Origin: Candidatus Curtissbacteria bacterium RIFCSPHIGHO2_12_FULL_41_17
Lineage (GTDB): Bacteria > Patescibacteriota > Microgenomatia > Curtissbacterales > GWA2-41-24
Assembly (NCBI GenBank): GCA_001774945.1
Contig: MFBL01000008.1
Coordinates: 9,310 to 52,073 of the forward strand
Direction: 5' to 3'
DNA: 42,764 nt
The number at the start of each line of letters is the position of its first letter. Position 1 is the stretch's first letter. The position numbers and the translations under genes are program-made. Below the pieces are notes generated by a model. The model saw only the letters and a list, made by a program, of their open reading frames with translations, searched no databases and was not told where the DNA came from. Positions 6,505 through 42,131 of this stretch are shown here, piece by piece.

Positions 6505-7530
6505 ATGTTTGCCAGATCCTACAAGTATTATCTTAATATACTGGAAAAAAGCTCAAAAGCTTCACCGGTACAAAAATTCATACTTATTATTGTCGCAGCA
6601 TTTTTTATATTAATAGGTATTTTTTCATCATCGCTTTACTACCTATACCAAAAGGAAGCACCTATAAGAACACAAGGTCAATATCTTGAGCTTGCCAACG
6701 GCGGCTTTAATGCTATTGAGCAGTCACTCGGTGAAATACTTTCTTCATATCAGGTTGCAGGCGCAAAAGCTCAAATTATTGATACGTCCAAGGAATCATC
6801 GCCTTCGGCTTCAGGTTATTTTGTTTCGCTTGACGATGTACAAAAGATAATGTCAAGTCTTGAGAAGGTAAAATCTGACATTGATTATCAAAAAGGCCAT
6901 CTGCAAGAACAAAAAACTCCGCAAAAATACACAGGGCTTCACAATGATTTATTAAATTTTTATGCGCAGACTGGCACTCTTTTAAGTAGCCTTGCAGATG
7001 ACCAAAAATTTTTAAAAGACATGCTAATGGCTTTAGGACCCGATTTTTATTTGCCGGTGCTCACCAATCAAAAACTTTGGACTAATGGCAATAAAGATGA
7101 GATTATTAATTATTATGAAAAAAATAAATCCCTTGCCAACGTGTCCTTTACCAATCTTTCCAAAACATCGCCAGCTGCCAAATTCAAACCCTTTTATGAT
7201 GCCCAAATAGCCTATTTTGAGGTGGTAGTTAAAGTTTCAGACAATATCATAAGTACCCTAAAGCAAAATGATACAGTCGACAAGGATGCGGCTACTCAAC
7301 TGGAAAAAGCCTACCAAATATTGATAGGAGCCCAAAGAGAAAATGAAAAATATGCAGACAAGTTAACAGAAGAAAAACTTAAAATATTCGACCTTAAAAA
7401 GAATCTGCAGGATTTTTCTCCCGTTAGTCTTCCTCAAAACTCTTTAAGAACAGCTCTTAACGATCATTTAACGAACCAACCCCAACCCAAGTTTGACAAA
7501 ATTCCAAATTTTATAAAAAGATTTTTATGA
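6505..7530 (+). CDS. Hypothetical single-TM anchored helical protein
   Basis: Long ORF with one N-terminal hydrophobic segment and no recognised motif. ATG 6505 preferred over TTG 6472. Confidence 0.75.
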   Translation: MFARSYKYYLNILEKSSKASPVQKFILIIVAAFFILIGIFSSSLYYLYQKEAPIRTQGQYLELANGGFNAIEQSLGEILSSYQVAGAKAQIIDTSKESSPSASGYFVSLDDVQKIMSSLEKVKSDIDYQKGHLQEQKTPQKYTGLHNDLLNFYAQTGTLLSSLADDQKFLKDMLMALGPDFYLPVLTNQKLWTNGNKDEIINYYEKNKSLANVSFTNLSKTSPAAKFKPFYDAQIAYFEVVVKVSDNIISTLKQNDTVDKDAATQLEKAYQILIGAQRENEKYADKLTEEKLKIFDLKKNLQDFSPVSLPQNSLRTALNDHLTNQPQPKFDKIPNFIKRFL

Positions 7531-7607
7531 TTTAAGACTCCTTCTTTTTTGGAGGGTTTACAAACTACACATTAACTTTGTTAAAATTAATACAAAGGAG
7601 GATAAAT

Positions 7608-7850
7608 ATGGATCCAAACGATCAAAACACCGATGACCAAAATCAAAATGATTCTGCCGATTCTGGTCAAGGAGTAAATGTTGGACAGGACCAACCAAGT
7701 GATCAGGCTCAAACACCACCACAACAACCAGAGCCTTCTCCTGAAGGGGATGCCCCGGAGGCAGCTCCGCTACCTCCAGTAGCGGAAGATCAGCCGCAAG
7801 GAGAGAGTCAGACGGGCACAGTGCCGGAAGAGCCAAAAGACAGCCAGTAG
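7608..7850 (+). CDS. Small acidic low-complexity (D/E/Q/P-rich) protein
   Basis: AAGGAGG Shine-Dalgarno before ATG 7608; 80 aa with no aromatic residue. Confidence 0.7.
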   Translation: MDPNDQNTDDQNQNDSADSGQGVNVGQDQPSDQAQTPPQQPEPSPEGDAPEAAPLPPVAEDQPQGESQTGTVPEEPKDSQ

Positions 7851-7953
7851 GATAATTCCCAATAGTAAAAAATATTACATGTCCGTTTTGGTTGACAGGG
7901 AAACGGATAAATTCATATGCTTAAGTGAAGCCAGAAAAATTTAGGCAGGATTT

Positions 7954-8625
7954 GTGACTCTTAAAACATTTAAAAATCAGCTTGCTGTAAGTTTAATAAT
8001 AGTTTCTTTTATTCTCTATAGTTTTGGGTTGTTTATTGGTGGGCGTATTTCGCAAAGATTCAGCCTAAATTATTTTAAAAAAGCAAAAATACAAAATAAA
8101 ATTGTCCAGCCCATTCAAACTAATTTACCCTACAGTGACAATCAATCGTCAAATGTTATCTCGTCGTATGTCAAGCTTTGTTCAAATACTTTTTACTCAT
8201 TTGAAGTATCTTACCCTAAAGATTGGTTTACTACCTACAACTCTGAAGGCCAAAAATGTACTTATTTTGCGCCGTATTCTTTCGTAATTCCGCAAAACTT
8301 GGACTTGCCATTTGTCCCTATACAAATAGAAGTAATTCCCAGCGCGAAGTGGCTTGAAACTGTCAAGTTTCATCAAAACCCCAATGATTTTCAAAATGTG
8401 CTGTCTAGCCAAAATATGCAAATAAATGATAAGTCAGCGGTATTGGTAAAAGCAGAAACTACCGGTAATGGCTCAATGCAAAAAGGGCTGGTGATTTCGT
8501 CCTATTTAATTTTCAACAGCAGTAACCCCGTTATACTTTCTTATCACCAAACTGACCAAAAAGAGAATACAAAATTGTATGAAGATATTCTTGCACAAAT
8601 GGCCAATACCCTAAACTTTTTTTGA
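7954..8625 (+). CDS. Membrane-anchored PsbP-like-fold protein
   Basis: N-terminal TM helix and the FEVSYPKDW motif typical of PsbP-related domains. Confidence 0.6.
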   Translation: MTLKTFKNQLAVSLIIVSFILYSFGLFIGGRISQRFSLNYFKKAKIQNKIVQPIQTNLPYSDNQSSNVISSYVKLCSNTFYSFEVSYPKDWFTTYNSEGQKCTYFAPYSFVIPQNLDLPFVPIQIEVIPSAKWLETVKFHQNPNDFQNVLSSQNMQINDKSAVLVKAETTGNGSMQKGLVISSYLIFNSSNPVILSYHQTDQKENTKLYEDILAQMANTLNFF

Positions 8626-8630
8626 AGACT

Positions 8631-8688
8631 AAAGAAAAGGCCTCTCTTGCGAGAAGCCCTTTCAAGTTGCCTATCTTGCGATAAGCAT
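8631..8688 (-). ncRNA. Candidate ~60-nt small RNA with two GCAA-capped hairpins
   Basis: GCTTATC-GCAA-GATAGGC and GAAAGGGCTTCTC-GCAA-GAGAGGCCTTTTC pair with G-U wobbles only on the minus strand. TTGACA-N17-TATAAA lies upstream at 8722-8694. Confidence 0.4.
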
Positions 8689-8765
8689 CGATATTTATAC
8701 AACTAAAATAAAAGTCTGTCAACCCCCCAAATTAAGGCTGAGATGATATACTGAAACAAAATTGA

Positions 8766-10049
8766 ATGAAAGTCGTTGAAGGGAAAAAGGTTTATACGGT
8801 ATTAGAAGTTAATTATTTTGCAAAAATGACTTTGGAGGAAATGGCTTTCTGGGTTGAGGGGGAAATTACAAGCGCACGACAAAATTCTTCTTACAATTTT
8901 TTCTACTTAACCTTAAAAGACGAAAACGCAATTCTTCCGGCTATTGCAGATGCCCAAGTTCTAAATCAATTACCAGAACCGTTTGTTGGCCAAAAAGTTC
9001 TTGCTTTTGGACACCTTAGTCTTTATGAGCCAAGAGCTCAGTATCAACTTCGTATTTCGCAACTTGAAGTTTACGGTGAAGGCCTTTTGCAAAAACAACT
9101 CGATCAACTAATTTCAAAGCTAAGAGCAGAGGGGTTGTTTGATTCTCGATATAAAAAACCCATACCTCCCTATCCCAAAAAAATTTGTGTTGTAACTTCA
9201 TATGGCTCGGATGCGTGGAATGATTTCAAAACCCACACGACTGATAAATTTCCTATTATTGAATTTTTTACGGCAGATGTTCGGGTTCAGGGGTCTGAAG
9301 CAGCACCACAACTTTTAAGACTTTTGCCCAAAGTAGATAAAAAGGGCTTTGATGTAATTATTATTACGCGAGGTGGTGGATCCATTGAAGATCTTGCTGC
9401 CTTCAATGATGAAACGGTCGCCAGATGTATTTTTAAAATGAAAACACCCATAATTGTTGCGATCGGCCATGAAGCAAACGAGTCGCTTGCAGAATGGGTT
9501 GCCGATAAACGTGCATCTACCCCGACGGATGCTGCCCACATCGTAACAAGTGCTTATGGCAAAATTTTCGAAGTACTTGAAAAATATGAGCTAAAACTAA
9601 ATAGCAAAAGTGACACTTATTTTACCCGAAACTTGCAAAGGCTTGATTACCTTTACATTAAACTTGAGCAGGTGAAGCTAAGTTTTAAGGATCTGCCAGC
9701 AAGATTATCTACCATAAAGGAATCTCTCAGGCGCCATGAAAGGTATTTGATCGCTGATGCACAAGCAAGAGTTAAAGAACTTTTTGAAAGTCTTGAAAGA
9801 AAAATAAAAGTTACAATTGACAGTCAACAAAAAGGGCTAATAGTGCTAAATAAATCACTGACTATTCTTTCACCTAAAAATACTCTTGGCCGGGGATATT
9901 CCATTACATTCGACACTCAAGGTAAAATTATTAGAAATATTGATTCTGTTGTTGTTGGCCAAATGGTTGGAGTAAAATTAACAGACGGACTAATTAAATC
10001 AAAAGTTATTTTTAAAATTAAAAATGAGCAAAAATTCGAAAGACCTTAA
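8766..10049 (+). CDS. xseA: Exodeoxyribonuclease VII large subunit
   Basis: WVEGEI, YFYLTLKD-like OB fold, IITRGGGSIEDL, AIGHE and TPTDAA motifs. Confidence 0.95.
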   Translation: MKVVEGKKVYTVLEVNYFAKMTLEEMAFWVEGEITSARQNSSYNFFYLTLKDENAILPAIADAQVLNQLPEPFVGQKVLAFGHLSLYEPRAQYQLRISQLEVYGEGLLQKQLDQLISKLRAEGLFDSRYKKPIPPYPKKICVVTSYGSDAWNDFKTHTTDKFPIIEFFTADVRVQGSEAAPQLLRLLPKVDKKGFDVIIITRGGGSIEDLAAFNDETVARCIFKMKTPIIVAIGHEANESLAEWVADKRASTPTDAAHIVTSAYGKIFEVLEKYELKLNSKSDTYFTRNLQRLDYLYIKLEQVKLSFKDLPARLSTIKESLRRHERYLIADAQARVKELFESLERKIKVTIDSQQKGLIVLNKSLTILSPKNTLGRGYSITFDTQGKIIRNIDSVVVGQMVGVKLTDGLIKSKVIFKIKNEQKFERP

Positions 10050-32054: not shown

Positions 32055-32128
32055 GGTGGTTGAGGGGATTTGAACCCCCGACCCTTCGCTCCACAAGCGA
32101 ATGCTCTAACCGCTGAGCTACAACCACC
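32055..32128 (-). tRNA. tRNA-His(GTG)
   Basis: Cloverleaf GGTGGTTGTAGCTCAG...TTCGC-TTGTGGA-GCGAA...GGTTCAAATCC; encoded G-1 opposite C73; CCA not encoded. Confidence 0.95.
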
Positions 32129-33023: not shown

Positions 33024-33452
33024 ATGAGGGTTATTTTAGATGCGAACATTATCATTGGTTTTTTATTGACAAAAGGTTACATCATTTCTTCTATATTTGA
33101 TTACTGGGAGAACAATCGTTTTACTCTTTTAATCTCAAACGACATTTTAGATGAATACAGGTTTATTTTAGATAGATTAATTGAGTTAAAAATGATCGAC
33201 AAATATAAAGCCAACACTCTACTGAGAATAATTAACAAAAAAGCTGTCAAAATTAATGTGGCATCAAAATTCAACGCATCACCTGATCGAAAGGATAACC
33301 GTTACCTTGAATGTGGGAAGGATGGTAAGGCTAATTATTTAGTGACAAGGGACAAAGGAGATTTACTATTTATGAAAAATTTCAAATATACTAAGATTAT
33401 TAGCGCGAGTGAATTACTAGAAATACTTAAAGGTTTAGATTACACAGGTTAA
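33024..33452 (+). CDS. PIN_3 family putative toxin
   Basis: MRVILDANII, DILDEY, PDRKDNRYLECG and YLVTRD motifs. Confidence 0.88.
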   Translation: MRVILDANIIIGFLLTKGYIISSIFDYWENNRFTLLISNDILDEYRFILDRLIELKMIDKYKANTLLRIINKKAVKINVASKFNASPDRKDNRYLECGKDGKANYLVTRDKGDLLFMKNFKYTKIISASELLEILKGLDYTG

Positions 33453-33485
33453 ATTGAATAACCTATTCTCAAGACCAAAATTTTG

Positions 33486-33558
33486 CGCGCCTGGAGGGAT
33501 TCGAACCCCCAACCGATCGCTTAGAACGCGACTGCTCTATCCGTTGAGCTACAGGCGC
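33486..33558 (-). tRNA. tRNA-Arg(TCT)
   Basis: GCGCCTGTAGCTCAACGGATAGAGCA GTCGC-GTTCTAA-GCGAT ...GGTTCGAATCC CTCCAGGCGC G. Confidence 0.92.
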
Positions 33559-33564
33559 TTACAG

Positions 33565-33635
33565 AGCGGGTGAAGGGAATCGAACCCTCGTGTCCAGTTT
33601 GGAAAACTGGTGTTCTGCCATTGAACTACACCCGC
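33565..33635 (-). tRNA. tRNA-Gly(TCC)
   Basis: GCGGGTGTAGTTCAATGGCAGAACA CCAGT-TTTCCAA-ACTGG ...GGTTCGATTCC CTTCACCCGC T. Confidence 0.95.
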
Positions 33636-33706
33636 AAAGCCCTATTATTCTATCAAAAAGTGCTAGTCTCTTGAAGATGCAACCTGAATTTAGGTAACAT
33701 TAAACT

Positions 33707-34027
33707 ATGGAAGTAATTCAGAGTGTTGGAGGGATTGCATTTGGATTTTGGTTTTACAAAATATTCAGCCATCCTCTCAAGCTCAAGAAGAAAATCCCGA
33801 AAATTCGTTTTTTTAAAACCGTAGAAATCTTACCAAATCTTAGAATTCACCTTAAAAAACATATTCTTCACGTTCATCATTGGATTTTTTTAAGCGCTAT
33901 TTTTGCCCTGTTATTTATTATAACTTCCAGTTTTTCCCAGCTTTTACTAGTAAAAAGCCTTTGCCTTGGTGGAATTATTCAGGGATTTACCTTTAAAGAT
34001 CGTTTCACAATACTCACAAAAATTTAG
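33707..34027 (+). CDS. Small membrane protein, unknown function
   Basis: 106-aa ORF with hydrophobic segments and an HVHHW motif. Confidence 0.65.
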   Translation: MEVIQSVGGIAFGFWFYKIFSHPLKLKKKIPKIRFFKTVEILPNLRIHLKKHILHVHHWIFLSAIFALLFIITSSFSQLLLVKSLCLGGIIQGFTFKDRFTILTKI

Positions 34028-34791
34028 CCTTTGTATTCTATAGAAGCAATAACGGGTAAATGGTCAGAAACTGTTATATTTGGAACGGATAGTTTAACAA
34101 GATCAAAATGACTGGAAGTAAATATGTAATCGACCAAATAAGCTCTTGGTGCAATCTTGTGTATCTTGACGTTAGTTGTAGCAAGAATGCCGGAATCCAT
34201 CATTAGATTCCTTGCCACCCTATTGATATTACCAACAGTCTTGCTTTGAGGGATAGCATTTAGATCACCACCCATTATAAAAGGCTCCTTTAATGATTTT
34301 AGGTGATTTGAGACGATTTGCGATTGTCTTAGAGTCTCCACTGTATCGGTAGGTGGTGCCGTCCAAGCACCATGCCAACTCATTATGCGGAATTTCTCGC
34401 TACCGATTTGAACCGTAACGTCAAGCAAATGTCTCGGTAAGAATGGAAAAAATCGTGGATCATTTACCTGATCCTTCGTATATTTATTTTTCTCTTTCAA
34501 AAAAATTGCCTTGTTCGATAGGATTTTAAATTTACTAAATACTGCGTTTCCCATTGTTCCTTTCCCGTCGGAAAGCGTAATGTCAACAGAACATACGCCG
34601 TCATAACCCGTCTCTCTTTTTATATGCGCGAATAAGTCACTACCGATTTTAGCAAAATTAAGTTCACCGCTTGTTACTTCCTGCATAGAAATAAAGTCCG
34701 GATTCTCACTTTTCAAAAAATCCAAAAGGTCGTTTAAGTATTTGCCCTTGTAAATATTAATCTGAACAAACTTATACGTTTTACCTGTCAT
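34024..34791 (-). CDS. Endonuclease/exonuclease/phosphatase family protein
   Basis: QINI, SMQEV, GNAVFS, MGGDLNA, VDYIF and SDHLPV motifs. Confidence 0.88.
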   Translation of the reverse strand: MTGKTYKFVQINIYKGKYLNDLLDFLKSENPDFISMQEVTSGELNFAKIGSDLFAHIKRETGYDGVCSVDITLSDGKGTMGNAVFSKFKILSNKAIFLKEKNKYTKDQVNDPRFFPFLPRHLLDVTVQIGSEKFRIMSWHGAWTAPPTDTVETLRQSQIVSNHLKSLKEPFIMGGDLNAIPQSKTVGNINRVARNLMMDSGILATTNVKIHKIAPRAYLVDYIFTSSHFDLVKLSVPNITVSDHLPVIASIEYKG

Positions 34792-36143
34792 TTTTTTGAG
34801 AGTACAAATTCCCTAAATAAGTTTCCTCTTTCTTCGTAATTCTTAAAAAGCCCGAAGCTTGCGGCTCCGGGTGAAAGCAGACAAGTTTTGCCTTTGGGTG
34901 TATTCGCAAAGGCAATATCAACAGCCTCTTGCATAGAGTTTGCCTTAAATTTTCGAAAAGATCTACCTTTAATTTTAGCTGAAGCGATAATCGACCAAAT
35001 TTTCTCGCCTGTTGTCGGAAACAAGATCAAGTTCTGGATGTTTTGCAAAGCTATATATTTTCCAAGCTGTGTTAAATCCAGCCCTCTGTCATAACCACCA
35101 ATAATTAAGGTACCAACGTCAGGTGAAAGCCCCTCAAGGGCATTTATTACAGCCATTGGATTGGTGGCCTGCGAATCGTTGTAAAATTTTATGCCATTGA
35201 CATTGGCCACGAATTCTAACCTGTGGGGCAAACTCTTAAATTTTTTGACGATCTGTTTAATCTTAGCTGACGAAATTTTAAATAAGGAGGCAACACAAAC
35301 AACAGCCAAAACATTTTCGATATTTCCGGGCCCCAATAGGGGAATATCAGATCTTTCTAGAATGTGCTTCTTTCTATGGTCTTCCTTAAGAAAGACACTG
35401 TCTCCTCTGATAAAACATAAGCCTTTGTATTTTTCATCACTAGCAAAAGGAATCTTTTTGGCGAGGCTCATTTGTCCTAGCTTTGAGGAATTTGTATTTC
35501 CAGCGTTAAAGATGACAAAATCGCCAGTTTCCTGAAACTTAACGATATTACTTTTGGCAGAAAGGTACTGGCCGAAGGTCTTGTGACTATCCAGATGTTC
35601 CGGGTAAATCACATGGACTACAGCTACATGTGGACTGTACCTTAAATCTTCAAGCTGCTGGCTTGAAAGCTCGCAAACAAAAATTGTTTTCCTGTCTGCC
35701 CCCTTAAGATAATCAAGAGCAGGCCTACCGATATTGCCAACAAGTCTTACATCGTTAAGTTCACTGGCAAGAACATCTGCTATTAAAGAAGAAGTTGTAC
35801 TCTTTCCTTTGGTTCCGGTAACACCAACGATTACACCCGGACTAATTGAAAAAAAGATATTAGTTGCAGAAGTTACGATTTTTCCTGCTTTTGTAAAGTT
35901 TTTTAACTGGGGAAGGCTAGACGAAATTCCCGGAGATCTGATAAGTACATCATATTTTTCTATGTCCTCAAGGTAATCTTTTCCCAGATGCAGGTCAACA
36001 TTTTTATCAATAGGTTTAATTTTGGCAATGTCAGCAATGCCAATTTTTAAATTTGGATGGTGAGCTAAAAGAAATCTGTGAACACTTTGGCCTTCACGTC
36101 CGTAACCGACAATTAGAGCGGATTTGCCATTTATTTCCTCCAT
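34788..36143 (-). CDS. murD: UDP-MurNAc-L-Ala:glutamate ligase (MurD; possibly the L-Glu-adding MurD2 type)
   Basis: RSPGI, GVTGTKGKSTT, GNIG, CELSSQQL, HRLE, NDSQATN and LSPGAASF motifs. Confidence 0.93.
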   Translation of the reverse strand: MEEINGKSALIVGYGREGQSVHRFLLAHHPNLKIGIADIAKIKPIDKNVDLHLGKDYLEDIEKYDVLIRSPGISSSLPQLKNFTKAGKIVTSATNIFFSISPGVIVGVTGTKGKSTTSSLIADVLASELNDVRLVGNIGRPALDYLKGADRKTIFVCELSSQQLEDLRYSPHVAVVHVIYPEHLDSHKTFGQYLSAKSNIVKFQETGDFVIFNAGNTNSSKLGQMSLAKKIPFASDEKYKGLCFIRGDSVFLKEDHRKKHILERSDIPLLGPGNIENVLAVVCVASLFKISSAKIKQIVKKFKSLPHRLEFVANVNGIKFYNDSQATNPMAVINALEGLSPDVGTLIIGGYDRGLDLTQLGKYIALQNIQNLILFPTTGEKIWSIIASAKIKGRSFRKFKANSMQEAVDIAFANTPKGKTCLLSPGAASFGLFKNYEERGNLFREFVLSKK

Positions 36144-37462
36144 TAATTCATCTGCTTCCTTAAAAGATTTTGATAAGTTGCCGGTAAAAAATTAATTTTA
36201 TTCCACGAATTTAAAATATTACTATCCATTTTAACTCTGCCTTCTATTTTTTTCTTTAAATCCTTTTCCCCATATTGTTCAATTGCCAGTTTAGCAGCCA
36301 GTCTTGATTCGGCAATAGTCCCGACACAGTCAAAAGGCTTATTCGCAGTTACTCCAGTTAAAGTATTAATATGGTCGACGAGATGTTTGTTTCTGAAATA
36401 ATCCGATCCAAAAATTTTAATCAGTTGCCCGCGCGAAATAAACGGCGAAAGTGCAAGATAGGAAAAAGCACATTTGGCGCAATTTCCGCACCAAATATTT
36501 GCTTTTTGTCCGGCATTACAGCTTTTAAATACTCCAAAATACTTGGGGGATCTGGCAAAAATTTTAGTGACCTGCAGTTCATAAAGAGGCCTTAAGAAAC
36601 TGAAATAGTTAATCTGCGCACTAAGATATTTACTGCAATAATTCCTAAAAAGTTTTTCAAATCTTGTGCTTTTTGAATACTGATGGTTAACCTCCATGTC
36701 GTGATAGCGGATGTTTACTTCATCGGCGCTTCTTTCATTTGAAACAATAACATTTTGATAATTCAATAGTGCAGCGGCTAAAGTTCCCAGAAAAGCAAGG
36801 TACGCTGAAAATGGCGTATGTCCGTTTAAATATCCATGCGAATTTAAATCTAAAAGTTTTGGGTCGATTTCTCTTGTTGCTATAAGAAGTTTTGTATATC
36901 CTGCTAATTTTGCAATTTCTATTGCAGACCTTGTAGGATTAAGGAGAAATACTTCTCTTTTCTGTTTTGATTTTTTTAGCAGTTCTAAAGTTACAGCTGA
37001 ATCTATTCCACCTCCAACCAGAATCAAATCACCGTTTGGTTTTTTTAAATCCTGCTTTTTAAATCTTGTTTTTGATTCTAATTTAATCTTTAAAAAGTCT
37101 TTCGGCCTAAAATCAATTTTGTTCTGATAAAAAAATTCTCCGAGTCCGTGAATAAAAAGATCCCTCCACCAGCTTATTTGCTCAACCGTTAAAAATCCGG
37201 CTTTGATAACAAACTCTTTTGGGCAAGCAGCCTTCCAATAACTTATAGACTCTACAAGTCCCAAGTTAAAGGCGAAAACTTTAAGAGATTCTGCTGAAAT
37301 TTTTGTGTCGCATGGAATGGAAATTTTCGGCTTAAAGAATATATTGGGCTCAAGCTTAAACAAATATTGTACGTGAATTGTATTTTTACTTTTAGTTATA
37401 TCGAAAGACTCGTAAACAAACCGAGCGTGTTTTTTGCGAAGCTGTTTAAGTGTTAGTGGCAT
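36143..37462 (-). CDS. murL: UDP-MurNAc-L-Ala-L-Glu epimerase (MurL family)
   Basis: SYWKAACP, PP-loop GGGIDS, NGHTPFSA, SNERSA, NHQYSKS, WCGNCAKCAF and KPFDCVG motifs; abuts murD. Confidence 0.8.
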   Translation of the reverse strand: MPLTLKQLRKKHARFVYESFDITKSKNTIHVQYLFKLEPNIFFKPKISIPCDTKISAESLKVFAFNLGLVESISYWKAACPKEFVIKAGFLTVEQISWWRDLFIHGLGEFFYQNKIDFRPKDFLKIKLESKTRFKKQDLKKPNGDLILVGGGIDSAVTLELLKKSKQKREVFLLNPTRSAIEIAKLAGYTKLLIATREIDPKLLDLNSHGYLNGHTPFSAYLAFLGTLAAALLNYQNVIVSNERSADEVNIRYHDMEVNHQYSKSTRFEKLFRNYCSKYLSAQINYFSFLRPLYELQVTKIFARSPKYFGVFKSCNAGQKANIWCGNCAKCAFSYLALSPFISRGQLIKIFGSDYFRNKHLVDHINTLTGVTANKPFDCVGTIAESRLAAKLAIEQYGEKDLKKKIEGRVKMDSNILNSWNKINFLPATYQNLLRKQMN

Positions 37463-37468
37463 ATTTAT

Positions 37469-38602
37469 TTAGATGACTTCTCTGCGAATGGAAGAACTAA
37501 TTCGCACCAGAATATCGTAAGGGATGGTATTTGCGGTCTTTGCCAAATTAGAGATAGAGTTTGCATCCTTACTATTATTTGAAATGACAGTTACCTCATC
37601 GTCTTCTTTGGCACTGTCGACGTTTGTCAAGTCAATTCCTGTTATATTCATACTAACCATTCCAACTATTTTGCATTGTTTTCCATTGACTAAAACCACA
37701 CCTTTATTTGAAAGCCTTCTGTCAATAGCATCATTGTAGCCGAGAGGTAAAAGTCCTATTTTCAGCGGTTTTATAGCTTTAAATGTACCATTATAGCCAA
37801 CCTTTTCTCCGATAACCAAGTCCTTAATCTGAACTATTCTGCTCTTAAGGGAAAGTACCGGTTTTAATTTTACTTTTGTATTTTCTCCATTTATCCCGTA
37901 GAGAGCCAGTCCGACCCTTGCCAAATTGCTAACCTTCTCAAGACTGTTACTGTCTAAATTTAAAAGCGAGGAAGAAGAAGCGATATGACTCAATTTAAAA
38001 TTAATGGCGAATTTTTTAGCAAGGCTCAATGCTTTATTAAAATTTCTCAGCTGCAGCTTTACCGCTTCATCTTGACCGTTACCGGCCGATGCAAAATGAG
38101 ACATGATTCCCTCAACAGTTATGTCTGGGAAGTTTCTCAACTGTGTAAAAAATGCTTCAAGATCATTAATTTTAATCCCTAACCGATTCATTCCTGTATC
38201 GACCTTTATATGAACACCTGCTCCCTTTTGGTATTTATTTATTACCTCAAGAAGTTTTAGATCATACACTGCATACGAGAAAGGCAGTTTTTTAACCTTG
38301 AGATTTTCGGGATCTATGTATCCCATGATTAGTATTTTTGATTTGATTTTTGCCATATAAAGCTCATAGGCCTCATATAAACTGTCAACACAAATAAAAG
38401 GCGGTGCAAATTCGTCGACAATTTTTGCAATCGCTAAAAGTCCATGACCGTAAGCATTACTTTTCAAAACCGGCGCGATTTTAATTTTATTGCTGATTTT
38501 AGAAAGTTGAAGATAATTAGAAATCAGATTCTTTTTATTAATTTCCACGCGGTTTAGGGGATAATAGGTCCGACCCAAAAATTTACGGATTATATTGCGC
38601 AT
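37469..38602 (-). CDS. alr: Alanine racemase
   Basis: VLKSNAYGHG (PLP Lys), HIKVDTGMNRLG, SHFASA, VGYNG and IPYDIL motifs. Start placed at ATG 38602; GTG 38626 is the alternative. Confidence 0.92.
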   Translation of the reverse strand: MRNIIRKFLGRTYYPLNRVEINKKNLISNYLQLSKISNKIKIAPVLKSNAYGHGLLAIAKIVDEFAPPFICVDSLYEAYELYMAKIKSKILIMGYIDPENLKVKKLPFSYAVYDLKLLEVINKYQKGAGVHIKVDTGMNRLGIKINDLEAFFTQLRNFPDITVEGIMSHFASAGNGQDEAVKLQLRNFNKALSLAKKFAINFKLSHIASSSSLLNLDSNSLEKVSNLARVGLALYGINGENTKVKLKPVLSLKSRIVQIKDLVIGEKVGYNGTFKAIKPLKIGLLPLGYNDAIDRRLSNKGVVLVNGKQCKIVGMVSMNITGIDLTNVDSAKEDDEVTVISNNSKDANSISNLAKTANTIPYDILVRISSSIRREVI

Positions 38603-38632
38603 ACAAAGGTTGTTATATTTTCTCAAAAAAAC

Positions 38633-38692
38633 TTGACAAGTACAAAGTTAGGTTGTACTATTATCTCAGATCGCGTGAAAAGCGGTCTTTTT
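38633..38692 (+). promoter_or_regulatory. Promoter with an inverted-repeat operator and a 5'-UTR terminator-like hairpin
   Basis: TTGACA-N17-TACTAT; AGTACAA-N7-TTGTACT at 38639-38659; AGATCGC-GTGAAAA-GCGGTCT followed by TTTT. Confidence 0.6.
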
Positions 38693-38705
38693 GTAAGGAA
38701 AAAAT

Positions 38706-39425
38706 ATGGGCAGAGAACGAAGAGATCAGAATCCGCAACCAGATAAGCAACCAACCGAAATTACTTCAACGGCAAGGGTGTTTGCTCTCGTAGAACCAGA
38801 AGAGTCTGCAACAATCAGTTACGAAGACTTGGTCATGCGTGATTGCCCAATTGTTATAGATCAAGGATCTGTCGAGGCAGTTGCTGGTAAAATGCTTAGA
38901 CAGCTACTACACTTGCATCGCGTAAATGGCCAATCCAAAACCACTCATGAAAAATCACGAAAGAGTCCCTGGAAGCATAAAGTAAACGAGGTAAGATTAG
39001 GCAAAAAATATCGAAGGCCTAATCCATTAGAACCTGATCAAGCCTTGTTTGTGGTGTCAAGCCGCATTATTGATCCCCCTCCGCCTAGCCATGATGTAGG
39101 TGATTTTGGGATACACGAGCTGGCGGAATTATCCCTCGACCCTGAAGTTCTAGATATTTTTGCCAAATCACAATCAAATTCAGGTACATTAGTATGCCCC
39201 GATCAACTCGAAGGCGGCTTTTCTATAATTGACTTAGCCATGCAGACCGAAGATACAGAAGCTATAGAGCAGGTCGATACGGATGATTTAGATCTACTAC
39301 TTGAACCTGAGGAAGCTGAAAAGATGGTGACGTCAAGGCCTGCCAATAATCCGTATATTTTCAGCAGTCTTGAAGAAGACGATCTTCCCAATGAAGACGA
39401 CTACTCGGAGAATTCCAGAGCGTAA
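38706..39425 (+). CDS. Hypothetical protein with an acidic C-terminus
   Basis: 239-aa ORF with an AAGGA SD and its own promoter; no recognised motif. Confidence 0.65.
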   Translation: MGRERRDQNPQPDKQPTEITSTARVFALVEPEESATISYEDLVMRDCPIVIDQGSVEAVAGKMLRQLLHLHRVNGQSKTTHEKSRKSPWKHKVNEVRLGKKYRRPNPLEPDQALFVVSSRIIDPPPPSHDVGDFGIHELAELSLDPEVLDIFAKSQSNSGTLVCPDQLEGGFSIIDLAMQTEDTEAIEQVDTDDLDLLLEPEEAEKMVTSRPANNPYIFSSLEEDDLPNEDDYSENSRA

Positions 39426-42057: not shown

Positions 42058-42131
42058 TCGGGGAGAGAGGACTCGAACCTCCGACCTCTGCGTCCCAAAC
42101 GCAGCGCTCTAGCCAACTGAGCTACTCCCCG
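42058..42131 (-). tRNA. tRNA-Pro(TGG)
   Basis: CGGGGAGTAGCTCAGTTGGCTAGAGCG CTGCG-TTTGGGA-CGCAG AGGTC GGAGGTTCGAGTCCTCT CTCCCCG A. Confidence 0.96.

Follow-up and report, generated by a model that had tools for sequence, protein, structure and literature searches.

How a bacterium of the Patescibacteria obtains the D-glutamate of its peptidoglycan when no glutamate racemase is recognised in its genome assembly is the question raised by a locus in Candidatus Curtissbacteria bacterium RIFCSPHIGHO2_12_FULL_41_17. The locus lies in a window of 42,764 nt (assembly GCA_001774945.1, contig MFBL01000008.1, positions 9,310 to 52,073), which is the whole stretch of DNA analysed here; the positions given below are those of the window. 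On the minus strand, alr, encoding alanine racemase (37469–38602), is followed by a gene for a MurL homologue of 439 amino acids (36143–37462) and a gene for a MurD-family ligase of 451 amino acids (34788–36143). It is highly probable that alr-murL-murD supply both D-amino acids of the stem peptide, the ligase being a MurD2 and MurL epimerising its product, and that the pair replaces the glutamate racemase MurI and canonical MurD. Alr would convert L-Ala to D-Ala. The MurD2-type ligase would join L-Glu, not D-Glu, to the precursor UDP-MurNAc-L-Ala with conversion of ATP to ADP, and MurL would then turn the bound L-Glu into D-Glu with ATP. The basis of this reading is homology, fold, specificity residues, linkage and fusion of the two genes, the phyletic complementarity of MurL and MurI, and a Mur pathway that is otherwise complete. 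L-Glu ligation and epimerisation are ascribed to the window's enzymes by analogy with the assayed orthologues from Xanthomonas, Micromonospora and Salinispora (PMC8788868).

The product of 36143–37462 matches the MurL profile NF041275 (MurL_Xanthmoales) with an E value of 5.6e-80 and 269 bits, over model positions 8–391 of 447. A search of 14 control genomes with NF041275 gave no match. The Pfam families PF26299 (MurL_N) and PF26298 (MurL_epimerase_C) are precomputed for the exact MurL protein and for the nearest Atlas clusters. The local Pfam-A copy returned no family for the MurL open reading frame (ORF), but this copy is older than PF26298 and PF26299, so the result is not evidence against membership. 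About 8000 relatives of MurL are found in a large protein collection, all with precomputed PF26298 and PF26299. Most of them come from Patescibacteria, Microgenomates or Levybacteria and are unnamed or called 'hypothetical'; Microgenomates and Levybacteria names occur among the closest matches.

MurL has two domains: MurL_N at the N-terminus, and a PP-loop domain resembling QueC. The motif GGGIDS is located at residues 150–155 (family consensus GGGKDS), and C315, C325, C328 and C331 form a cysteine cluster. Seven motifs are invariant or nearly invariant in 67 family members: GGGKDS, NGH-P, SNE, NHQ-SK, SCN, WC-x2-C-x-KC and KPF-CVG. An AlphaFold model of MurL, made from the family alignment, has a mean predicted local distance difference test score (pLDDT) of 95.8 and places GGGIDS between strand 145–148 and helix 153–162. 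Since both the motif position and the PP-loop fold match, the label 'PP-loop' is right. When searched by sequence against the PDB, MurL gave nothing meaningful (best E 0.19). Fold comparison of the model gave QatC of the QatABCD system as the best match, with a Z score of 19.1 over 312 residues covering both domains. QueC (Z 13.0–13.4) and Cap9 (Z 12.8) come next, and TtuA, NAD synthetase, ThiI, LarE and argininosuccinate synthase follow at Z 7–8; all of these proteins are PP-loop ATP pyrophosphatases. The first-pass annotation of this DNA, made from the letters and their ORFs, had called the protein a MurL-like PP-loop protein and asked for a match to the MurL profile; the profile match, the motif and the fold matches bear this out.

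QueC, QatC and Cap9 share with MurL a PP-loop ATP-pyrophosphatase core, whose loop sits between strand 1 and helix 1, and a C-x(n)-C-x2-C-x2-C cluster that follows this core. In QatC the N-terminal domain aligns as well. The three differ from MurL in that sequence identity is 9–18%, with no sequence-level match to solved structures, and in that substrates and outcomes are not the same. QueC adenylates a carboxylate. The QueC-like fold shared by the MurL model supports an adenylation step without proving it. A QueC-like core would fit the hypothesis of a review that MurL adenylates the alpha-carboxylate, as well as the stoichiometry given there, of one ATP converted to AMP, for an enzyme that 'lacks known conserved domains' and acts from L to D only (PMC8788868). 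In the likely chemistry, the alpha-carboxylate of Glu would first be adenylated, with ATP giving AMP; inversion of C-alpha in the activated ester and then hydrolysis would follow, and the final hydrolysis is proposed to make the step unidirectional. The catalytic core would be a QueC-like PP-loop ATP pyrophosphatase, whose four-Cys cluster is placed like the zinc site of QueC. We infer both the adenylation mechanism and a zinc site in MurL.

The ligase is the sole MurD homologue in the assembly. Four residues differ between E. coli MurD (D182/K348/A414/L416) and X. oryzae MurD2 (E197/R358/P433/F435). The double mutation E197D/R358K turns MurD2 to D-Glu, while P433A and F435L leave its stereospecificity unchanged (PMC8788868). 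The window ligase was aligned with E. coli MurD (L002), 76 Patescibacteria ligases and 25 MurL-adjoining ligases of other taxa, including those of Xanthomonas vasicola and X. hortorum. The MurD2 of the latter two read E/R/P/F at a constant offset of +3 from the published numbering, which validates the columns. The window ligase reads E182/R353/A428/F430. It therefore carries Glu and Arg at the E197/R358 positions, where E. coli has D182/K348, and Ala and Phe at the P433/F435 positions. Among the Patescibacteria, the K348 column holds Arg in 32 of 35 ligases from MurL genomes. In MurI genomes (22 ligases) and in genomes with neither enzyme (20 ligases) it is Lys without exception. The column of E. 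coli D182 was tried as a second marker within the Patescibacteria and dropped; Glu or Asp occurs in all three groups of genomes.

One group of a 78-row quick tree of the ligases holds 34 of the 35 MurL-linked ligases. When Xanthomonadales sequences are included (79-row quick tree), a clade of 42 rows consists exclusively of MurL-linked ligases, with a Shimodaira–Hasegawa-like approximate likelihood ratio test (SH-aLRT) value of 96. Besides 32 Patescibacteria, the window among them, it holds Xanthomonadales, an alphaproteobacterial metagenome-assembled genome (MAG) and a MAG of Weeksellaceae. A careful tree of 41 rows places the window in a Patescibacteria clade made up solely of MurL-linked ligases (ultrafast bootstrap, UFBoot, 99; SH-aLRT 96), which is sister to the Xanthomonadales MurD2 (86/95). 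A constraint joining the window and G166, a genome of the same family, to the MurI-linked MurD of two further family members, G215 and G230, is rejected, being 160 log-likelihood units worse with a p-value of 5e-5 in the approximately unbiased test; the group so constrained was chosen after the tree was seen. The phylogeny of MurD versus MurD2 that the first-pass annotation had called for thus places the window among the MurL-linked ligases and apart from the MurD that accompanies MurI in its own family.

Other MurL-linked ligases form a second clade, apart from the first, in which the gene order is reversed, with murD before murL (L032 from G218, L035 from G010, L010, L015, L021 and L036). 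Lys is retained at the K348 column in two of its members, and in L032 the CxxCxxC cysteines have been lost from MurL.

Linkage of the two genes extends well beyond this organism. A search of a one-genome-per-species collection with a 7-sequence alignment found a relative encoded at 587 or more loci, some of them in MAGs labelled Weeksellaceae, Solirubrobacteraceae and Alphaproteobacteria. At 76 of 80 recovered loci, from several phyla and including Xanthomonas, murL is directly upstream of murD on the same strand, and one further locus is a fusion. Among the 37 MurL genomes in a sample of Patescibacteria, seven carry MurL and MurD as a single ORF of 812–939 amino acids with MurL N-terminal. 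Fusions are found at loci L006, L012, L014, L016, L017, L019, L022 and L093; L093 is truncated by the end of its locus, and the other seven are those of 812–939 amino acids.

Pairs of MurL and MurD2 are also seen on contigs labelled as Weeksellaceae, Solirubrobacteraceae, Alphaproteobacteria and Gammaproteobacteria MAGs (L109, L135, L158 and L124). The L124 ligase groups with one Patescibacteria ligase with a support of 100. P0095, a MurL 47% identical to that of the window, comes from a cyanobacterial culture assembly (Gomphosphaeria). Pairs outside the Patescibacteria could be the result of gene transfer, or could be mis-binned contigs of the candidate phyla radiation (CPR).

Several points weigh against assigning the ligase to MurD2. 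Ala stands where X. oryzae MurD2 has Pro433, and within the Patescibacteria the Glu/Asp column fails to separate the groups of genomes. Arg at the K348 column does not suffice for L-Glu specificity: it also occurs in the MurD of Streptococcus agalactiae, an enzyme named a D-Glu ligase and, among solved structures, the best relative of the window's ligase. The sister link to Xanthomonadales MurD2 has a moderate bootstrap (86), and a 41-row quick tree left this union unresolved. A rival reading is a relaxed ligase that takes either enantiomer of Glu, for instance D-Glu scavenged from a host wall, with MurL correcting the L-Glu fraction. In its favour, the window ligase has Ala at the P433 position and Gln at the K319 position. 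With K319T, E. coli MurD becomes able to take L-Glu, and the D-Glu ligase of S. mutans, which carries the same Arg, takes L-Glu too, though only slightly (PMC8788868). About 70 sampled genomes with MurD but no recognisable source of D-Glu also hint at scavenging in the phylum. However, the review describes the E/R pair as decisive and P433A as without effect (PMC8788868), the Arg column closely tracks MurL, and the two enzymes are fused in 7 of 37 genomes, which speaks for a route in which both steps are obligatory. A relaxed ligase is accordingly quite unlikely, and L-Glu ligation followed by epimerisation is preferred.

The assembly has 836 kb in 58 contigs and is 87% complete. At this completeness no match at E≤1 was found to TIGR00067 or PF01177 (Asp/Glu racemase), nor to PF01063 (class IV aminotransferase/dat); absence of murI and dat was a check proposed in the first-pass annotation, and its outcome agrees with the predicted route. 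The rest of the pathway is in place. Contig C51 carries murC, ddl, murF, mraY, ftsW, murG, ftsA and ftsZ, and contig C32 carries murE and ftsI. The ligase gene sits outside this division and cell wall (dcw) cluster, in which ftsW directly follows mraY (contig C51 of the window's genome, G000, about 7245–9251) and the usual slot of murD is empty. The empty slot is consistent with relocation of murD to the murL locus.

A sample of 251 Patescibacteria genomes was examined for the two routes; relatives in it are not independent, and the results are given as counts and not as statistics. MurL is found in 37 genomes (about 15%), MurI above its cut-off in 79, and both in none. MurD is present in all 37 MurL genomes, 34 of which are at least 90% complete and five of which are single contigs. 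Only partial matches to TIGR00067, of 29–47 bits, occur in the MurL genomes, and these are probably another paralogue of the Asp/Glu racemases. The two routes alternate between close relatives. In genus g52, MurL is found in G134 versus MurI in G067, G091 and G113 (also in G154, on which the claim does not depend). In genus g82, MurL is found in G102 versus MurI in G078 and G144, and in genus g132, MurL in G193 versus MurI in G140. In the window's family, G000 and G166 have MurL, and G215 and G230 have MurI. In the latter two, the gene immediately upstream of murD is murI, and alr lies a few kb away on the far side of murI. The slot held by murI in G215 and G230 is occupied by murL in G166, and in the window alr abuts murL. 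The murL-murD cassette thus sits at the chromosomal position where family-mates hold murI-murD.

Of the 207 genomes with MurD, roughly 70 contain neither MurI nor MurL, and a class IV aminotransferase is also missing from most of these. Their MurD (e.g. L062–L081) has the canonical Lys at the K348 column. D-Glu in these genomes could come from scavenging or from an unrecognised racemase. The class IV aminotransferase family (PF01063), considered as an explanation, was rejected; it is scattered over MurL, MurI and 'neither' genomes and is not specific for Dat.

The remaining points on the opposing side concern the genome and the MurL match. Since about 70 MurD-bearing genomes have neither enzyme, absence of MurI is by itself no proof of a need for MurL, and in the window's genome alone murI may possibly lie on unassembled DNA. 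The MurL score of 269 bits is far under the NCBIfam equivalog cut-off of 700 bits, a cut-off tuned to Xanthomonadales. The enzymology is known from orthologues outside the Patescibacteria, and the window's proteins are known here from genes and models. Taken together with the passing of the canonical murD model TIGR01087 (322.5 bits, cut-off 212) by the ligase, and with the pairing in G134 of a MurL gene and a canonical-type K348 MurD, the incomplete assembly and the score under the curated cut-off would allow the ligase to be a canonical D-Glu MurD with murI on the unassembled 13%, the MurL-like protein doing another job such as PP-loop adenylation of a wall precursor. Against this stand the MurL genomes as a group, nearly all at least 90% complete and with a real MurI in none, the position of the ligase, which falls in the MurL-linked clade and away from the MurD that goes with MurI in its family, the one-base start-stop overlap of murL and murD, and the fusions in other genomes. 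We consider a canonical MurD with a missed murI very unlikely.

The MurL gene of G134 (L011, G134:C3:26000–29700) is convergent with its canonical-type MurD, which groups with the MurI-linked MurD of genus-mates. MurI was not found in G134, which is 96% complete. G134 may represent a recent, incomplete swap.

The first-pass annotation had proposed that this reduced-genome organism uses the MurD2/MurL route, and the profile match, the E/R residues, the MurL-linked clade and the lack of a racemase match support the proposal. It had added that the route suits scavenging of host L-amino acids, and this part does not hold. L-Glu is the starting point of MurI as well, an extra ATP is spent on the MurL route, and MurI is used by sister genomes of the same lifestyle; scavenging of L-amino acids is therefore no argument for the MurL route.

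The locus resembles the MurD2/MurL system of Xanthomonas in several respects. In both, murL is directly upstream of murD on one strand, the ligase has the Glu/Arg specificity pair and the Phe, MurL has the same domain pair and conserved motifs, and the genome is without glutamate racemase and D-amino-acid transaminase (for the window, in an assembly 87% complete). They differ in sequence, the identity to Xanthomonas vasicola being about 34% for MurL and about 30% for the ligase, and the window has Ala for Pro433 and Ile for the PP-loop Lys (GGGIDS). Moreover, alr is part of the operon in the window, and its host, whose genome has about 0.9 Mb, belongs to the Patescibacteria, which are not among the published carriers. 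These carriers are Xanthomonadales, a few Alphaproteobacteria and rare actinomycetes (PMC8788868). With the system of MurI and canonical MurD, the window shares the chromosomal position upstream of murD, as seen in G215 and G230. MurI is unrelated to MurL, being a cofactor-free two-Cys racemase that acts reversibly on free Glu without ATP, and the MurI-linked MurD differs from the window ligase by Lys at the K348 column.

The pathway is known, and the pipelines of Pfam and of the Joint Genome Institute (JGI) already label such proteins; for the window this is a correct annotation and not a discovery. The literature was searched for MurL or MurD2 in connection with Patescibacteria, the CPR or glutamate racemase, and no paper that assigns the pathway to the Patescibacteria was found. 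Glutamate racemase activity has reportedly been observed in a Saccharimonas. MurD2/MurL was proposed as a narrow-spectrum drug target on the basis of its few carrier genera (PMC8788868). Its presence in about 15% of the 251 Patescibacteria, with a relative encoded at no fewer than 587 loci, widens the range and weakens the 'narrow-spectrum' premise. The natural MurL-MurD2 fusions provide material for structural work.

We think it rather likely, with less assurance than for the pathway itself, that murL-murD2 is a mobile cassette that has repeatedly displaced murI-murD in place within families and genera of the CPR, sometimes in fused form, and that MurL is a carboxylate adenylase of the QueC/QatC type. 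If true, this would provide the first structural rationale for an AMP-forming, one-way epimerisation. It would also make the cassette a major route to D-Glu in uncultured bacteria, and not a curiosity of a few genera.

The alr gene matches TIGR00492 with 279.6 bits (cut-off 168) and carries PF01168 (Ala_racemase_N) and PF00842 (Ala_racemase_C). Its longest ORF is 37469–38626, opening with TTG at 38626. Alignments of relatives to this long ORF start at residues 9–13, and the start is likely the ATG at 38602. As read in the sequence, the TAA of alr is followed by 6 nt and then by the ATG of murL. The TAA of murL and the ATG of murD have one base in common (TAATG), so that the first-pass description of a MurL-like protein overlapping murD by 1 nt behind alanine racemase is exact in both coordinates and overlap. 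In the relative G166, alr is about 2.3 kb upstream; adjacency of alr is a local feature.

Downstream of murD, also on the minus strand, an Exo_endo_phos-family gene (34024–34791; PF03372, E 3.9e-16) starts with an ATG that overlaps the TGA of murD by 4 nt (ATGA). The gene is probably co-transcribed with the cell-wall genes. It was not found adjoining murD in the three family-mates checked. Scans of 33400–39000 gave 11 promoter-like sites versus 14.6 expected from shuffles, which is not above shuffles, and 7 terminator-like sites versus 3.9 expected, a scan likewise counted as not above shuffles. The operon is read from the overlaps of 1 nt and 4 nt and from the gap of 6 nt, and we make no claim on transcription signals. 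The operon region is flanked by four tRNA genes (Rfam RF00005), all on the minus strand, at 32055–32127, 33486–33558, 33565–33635 and 42058–42131.

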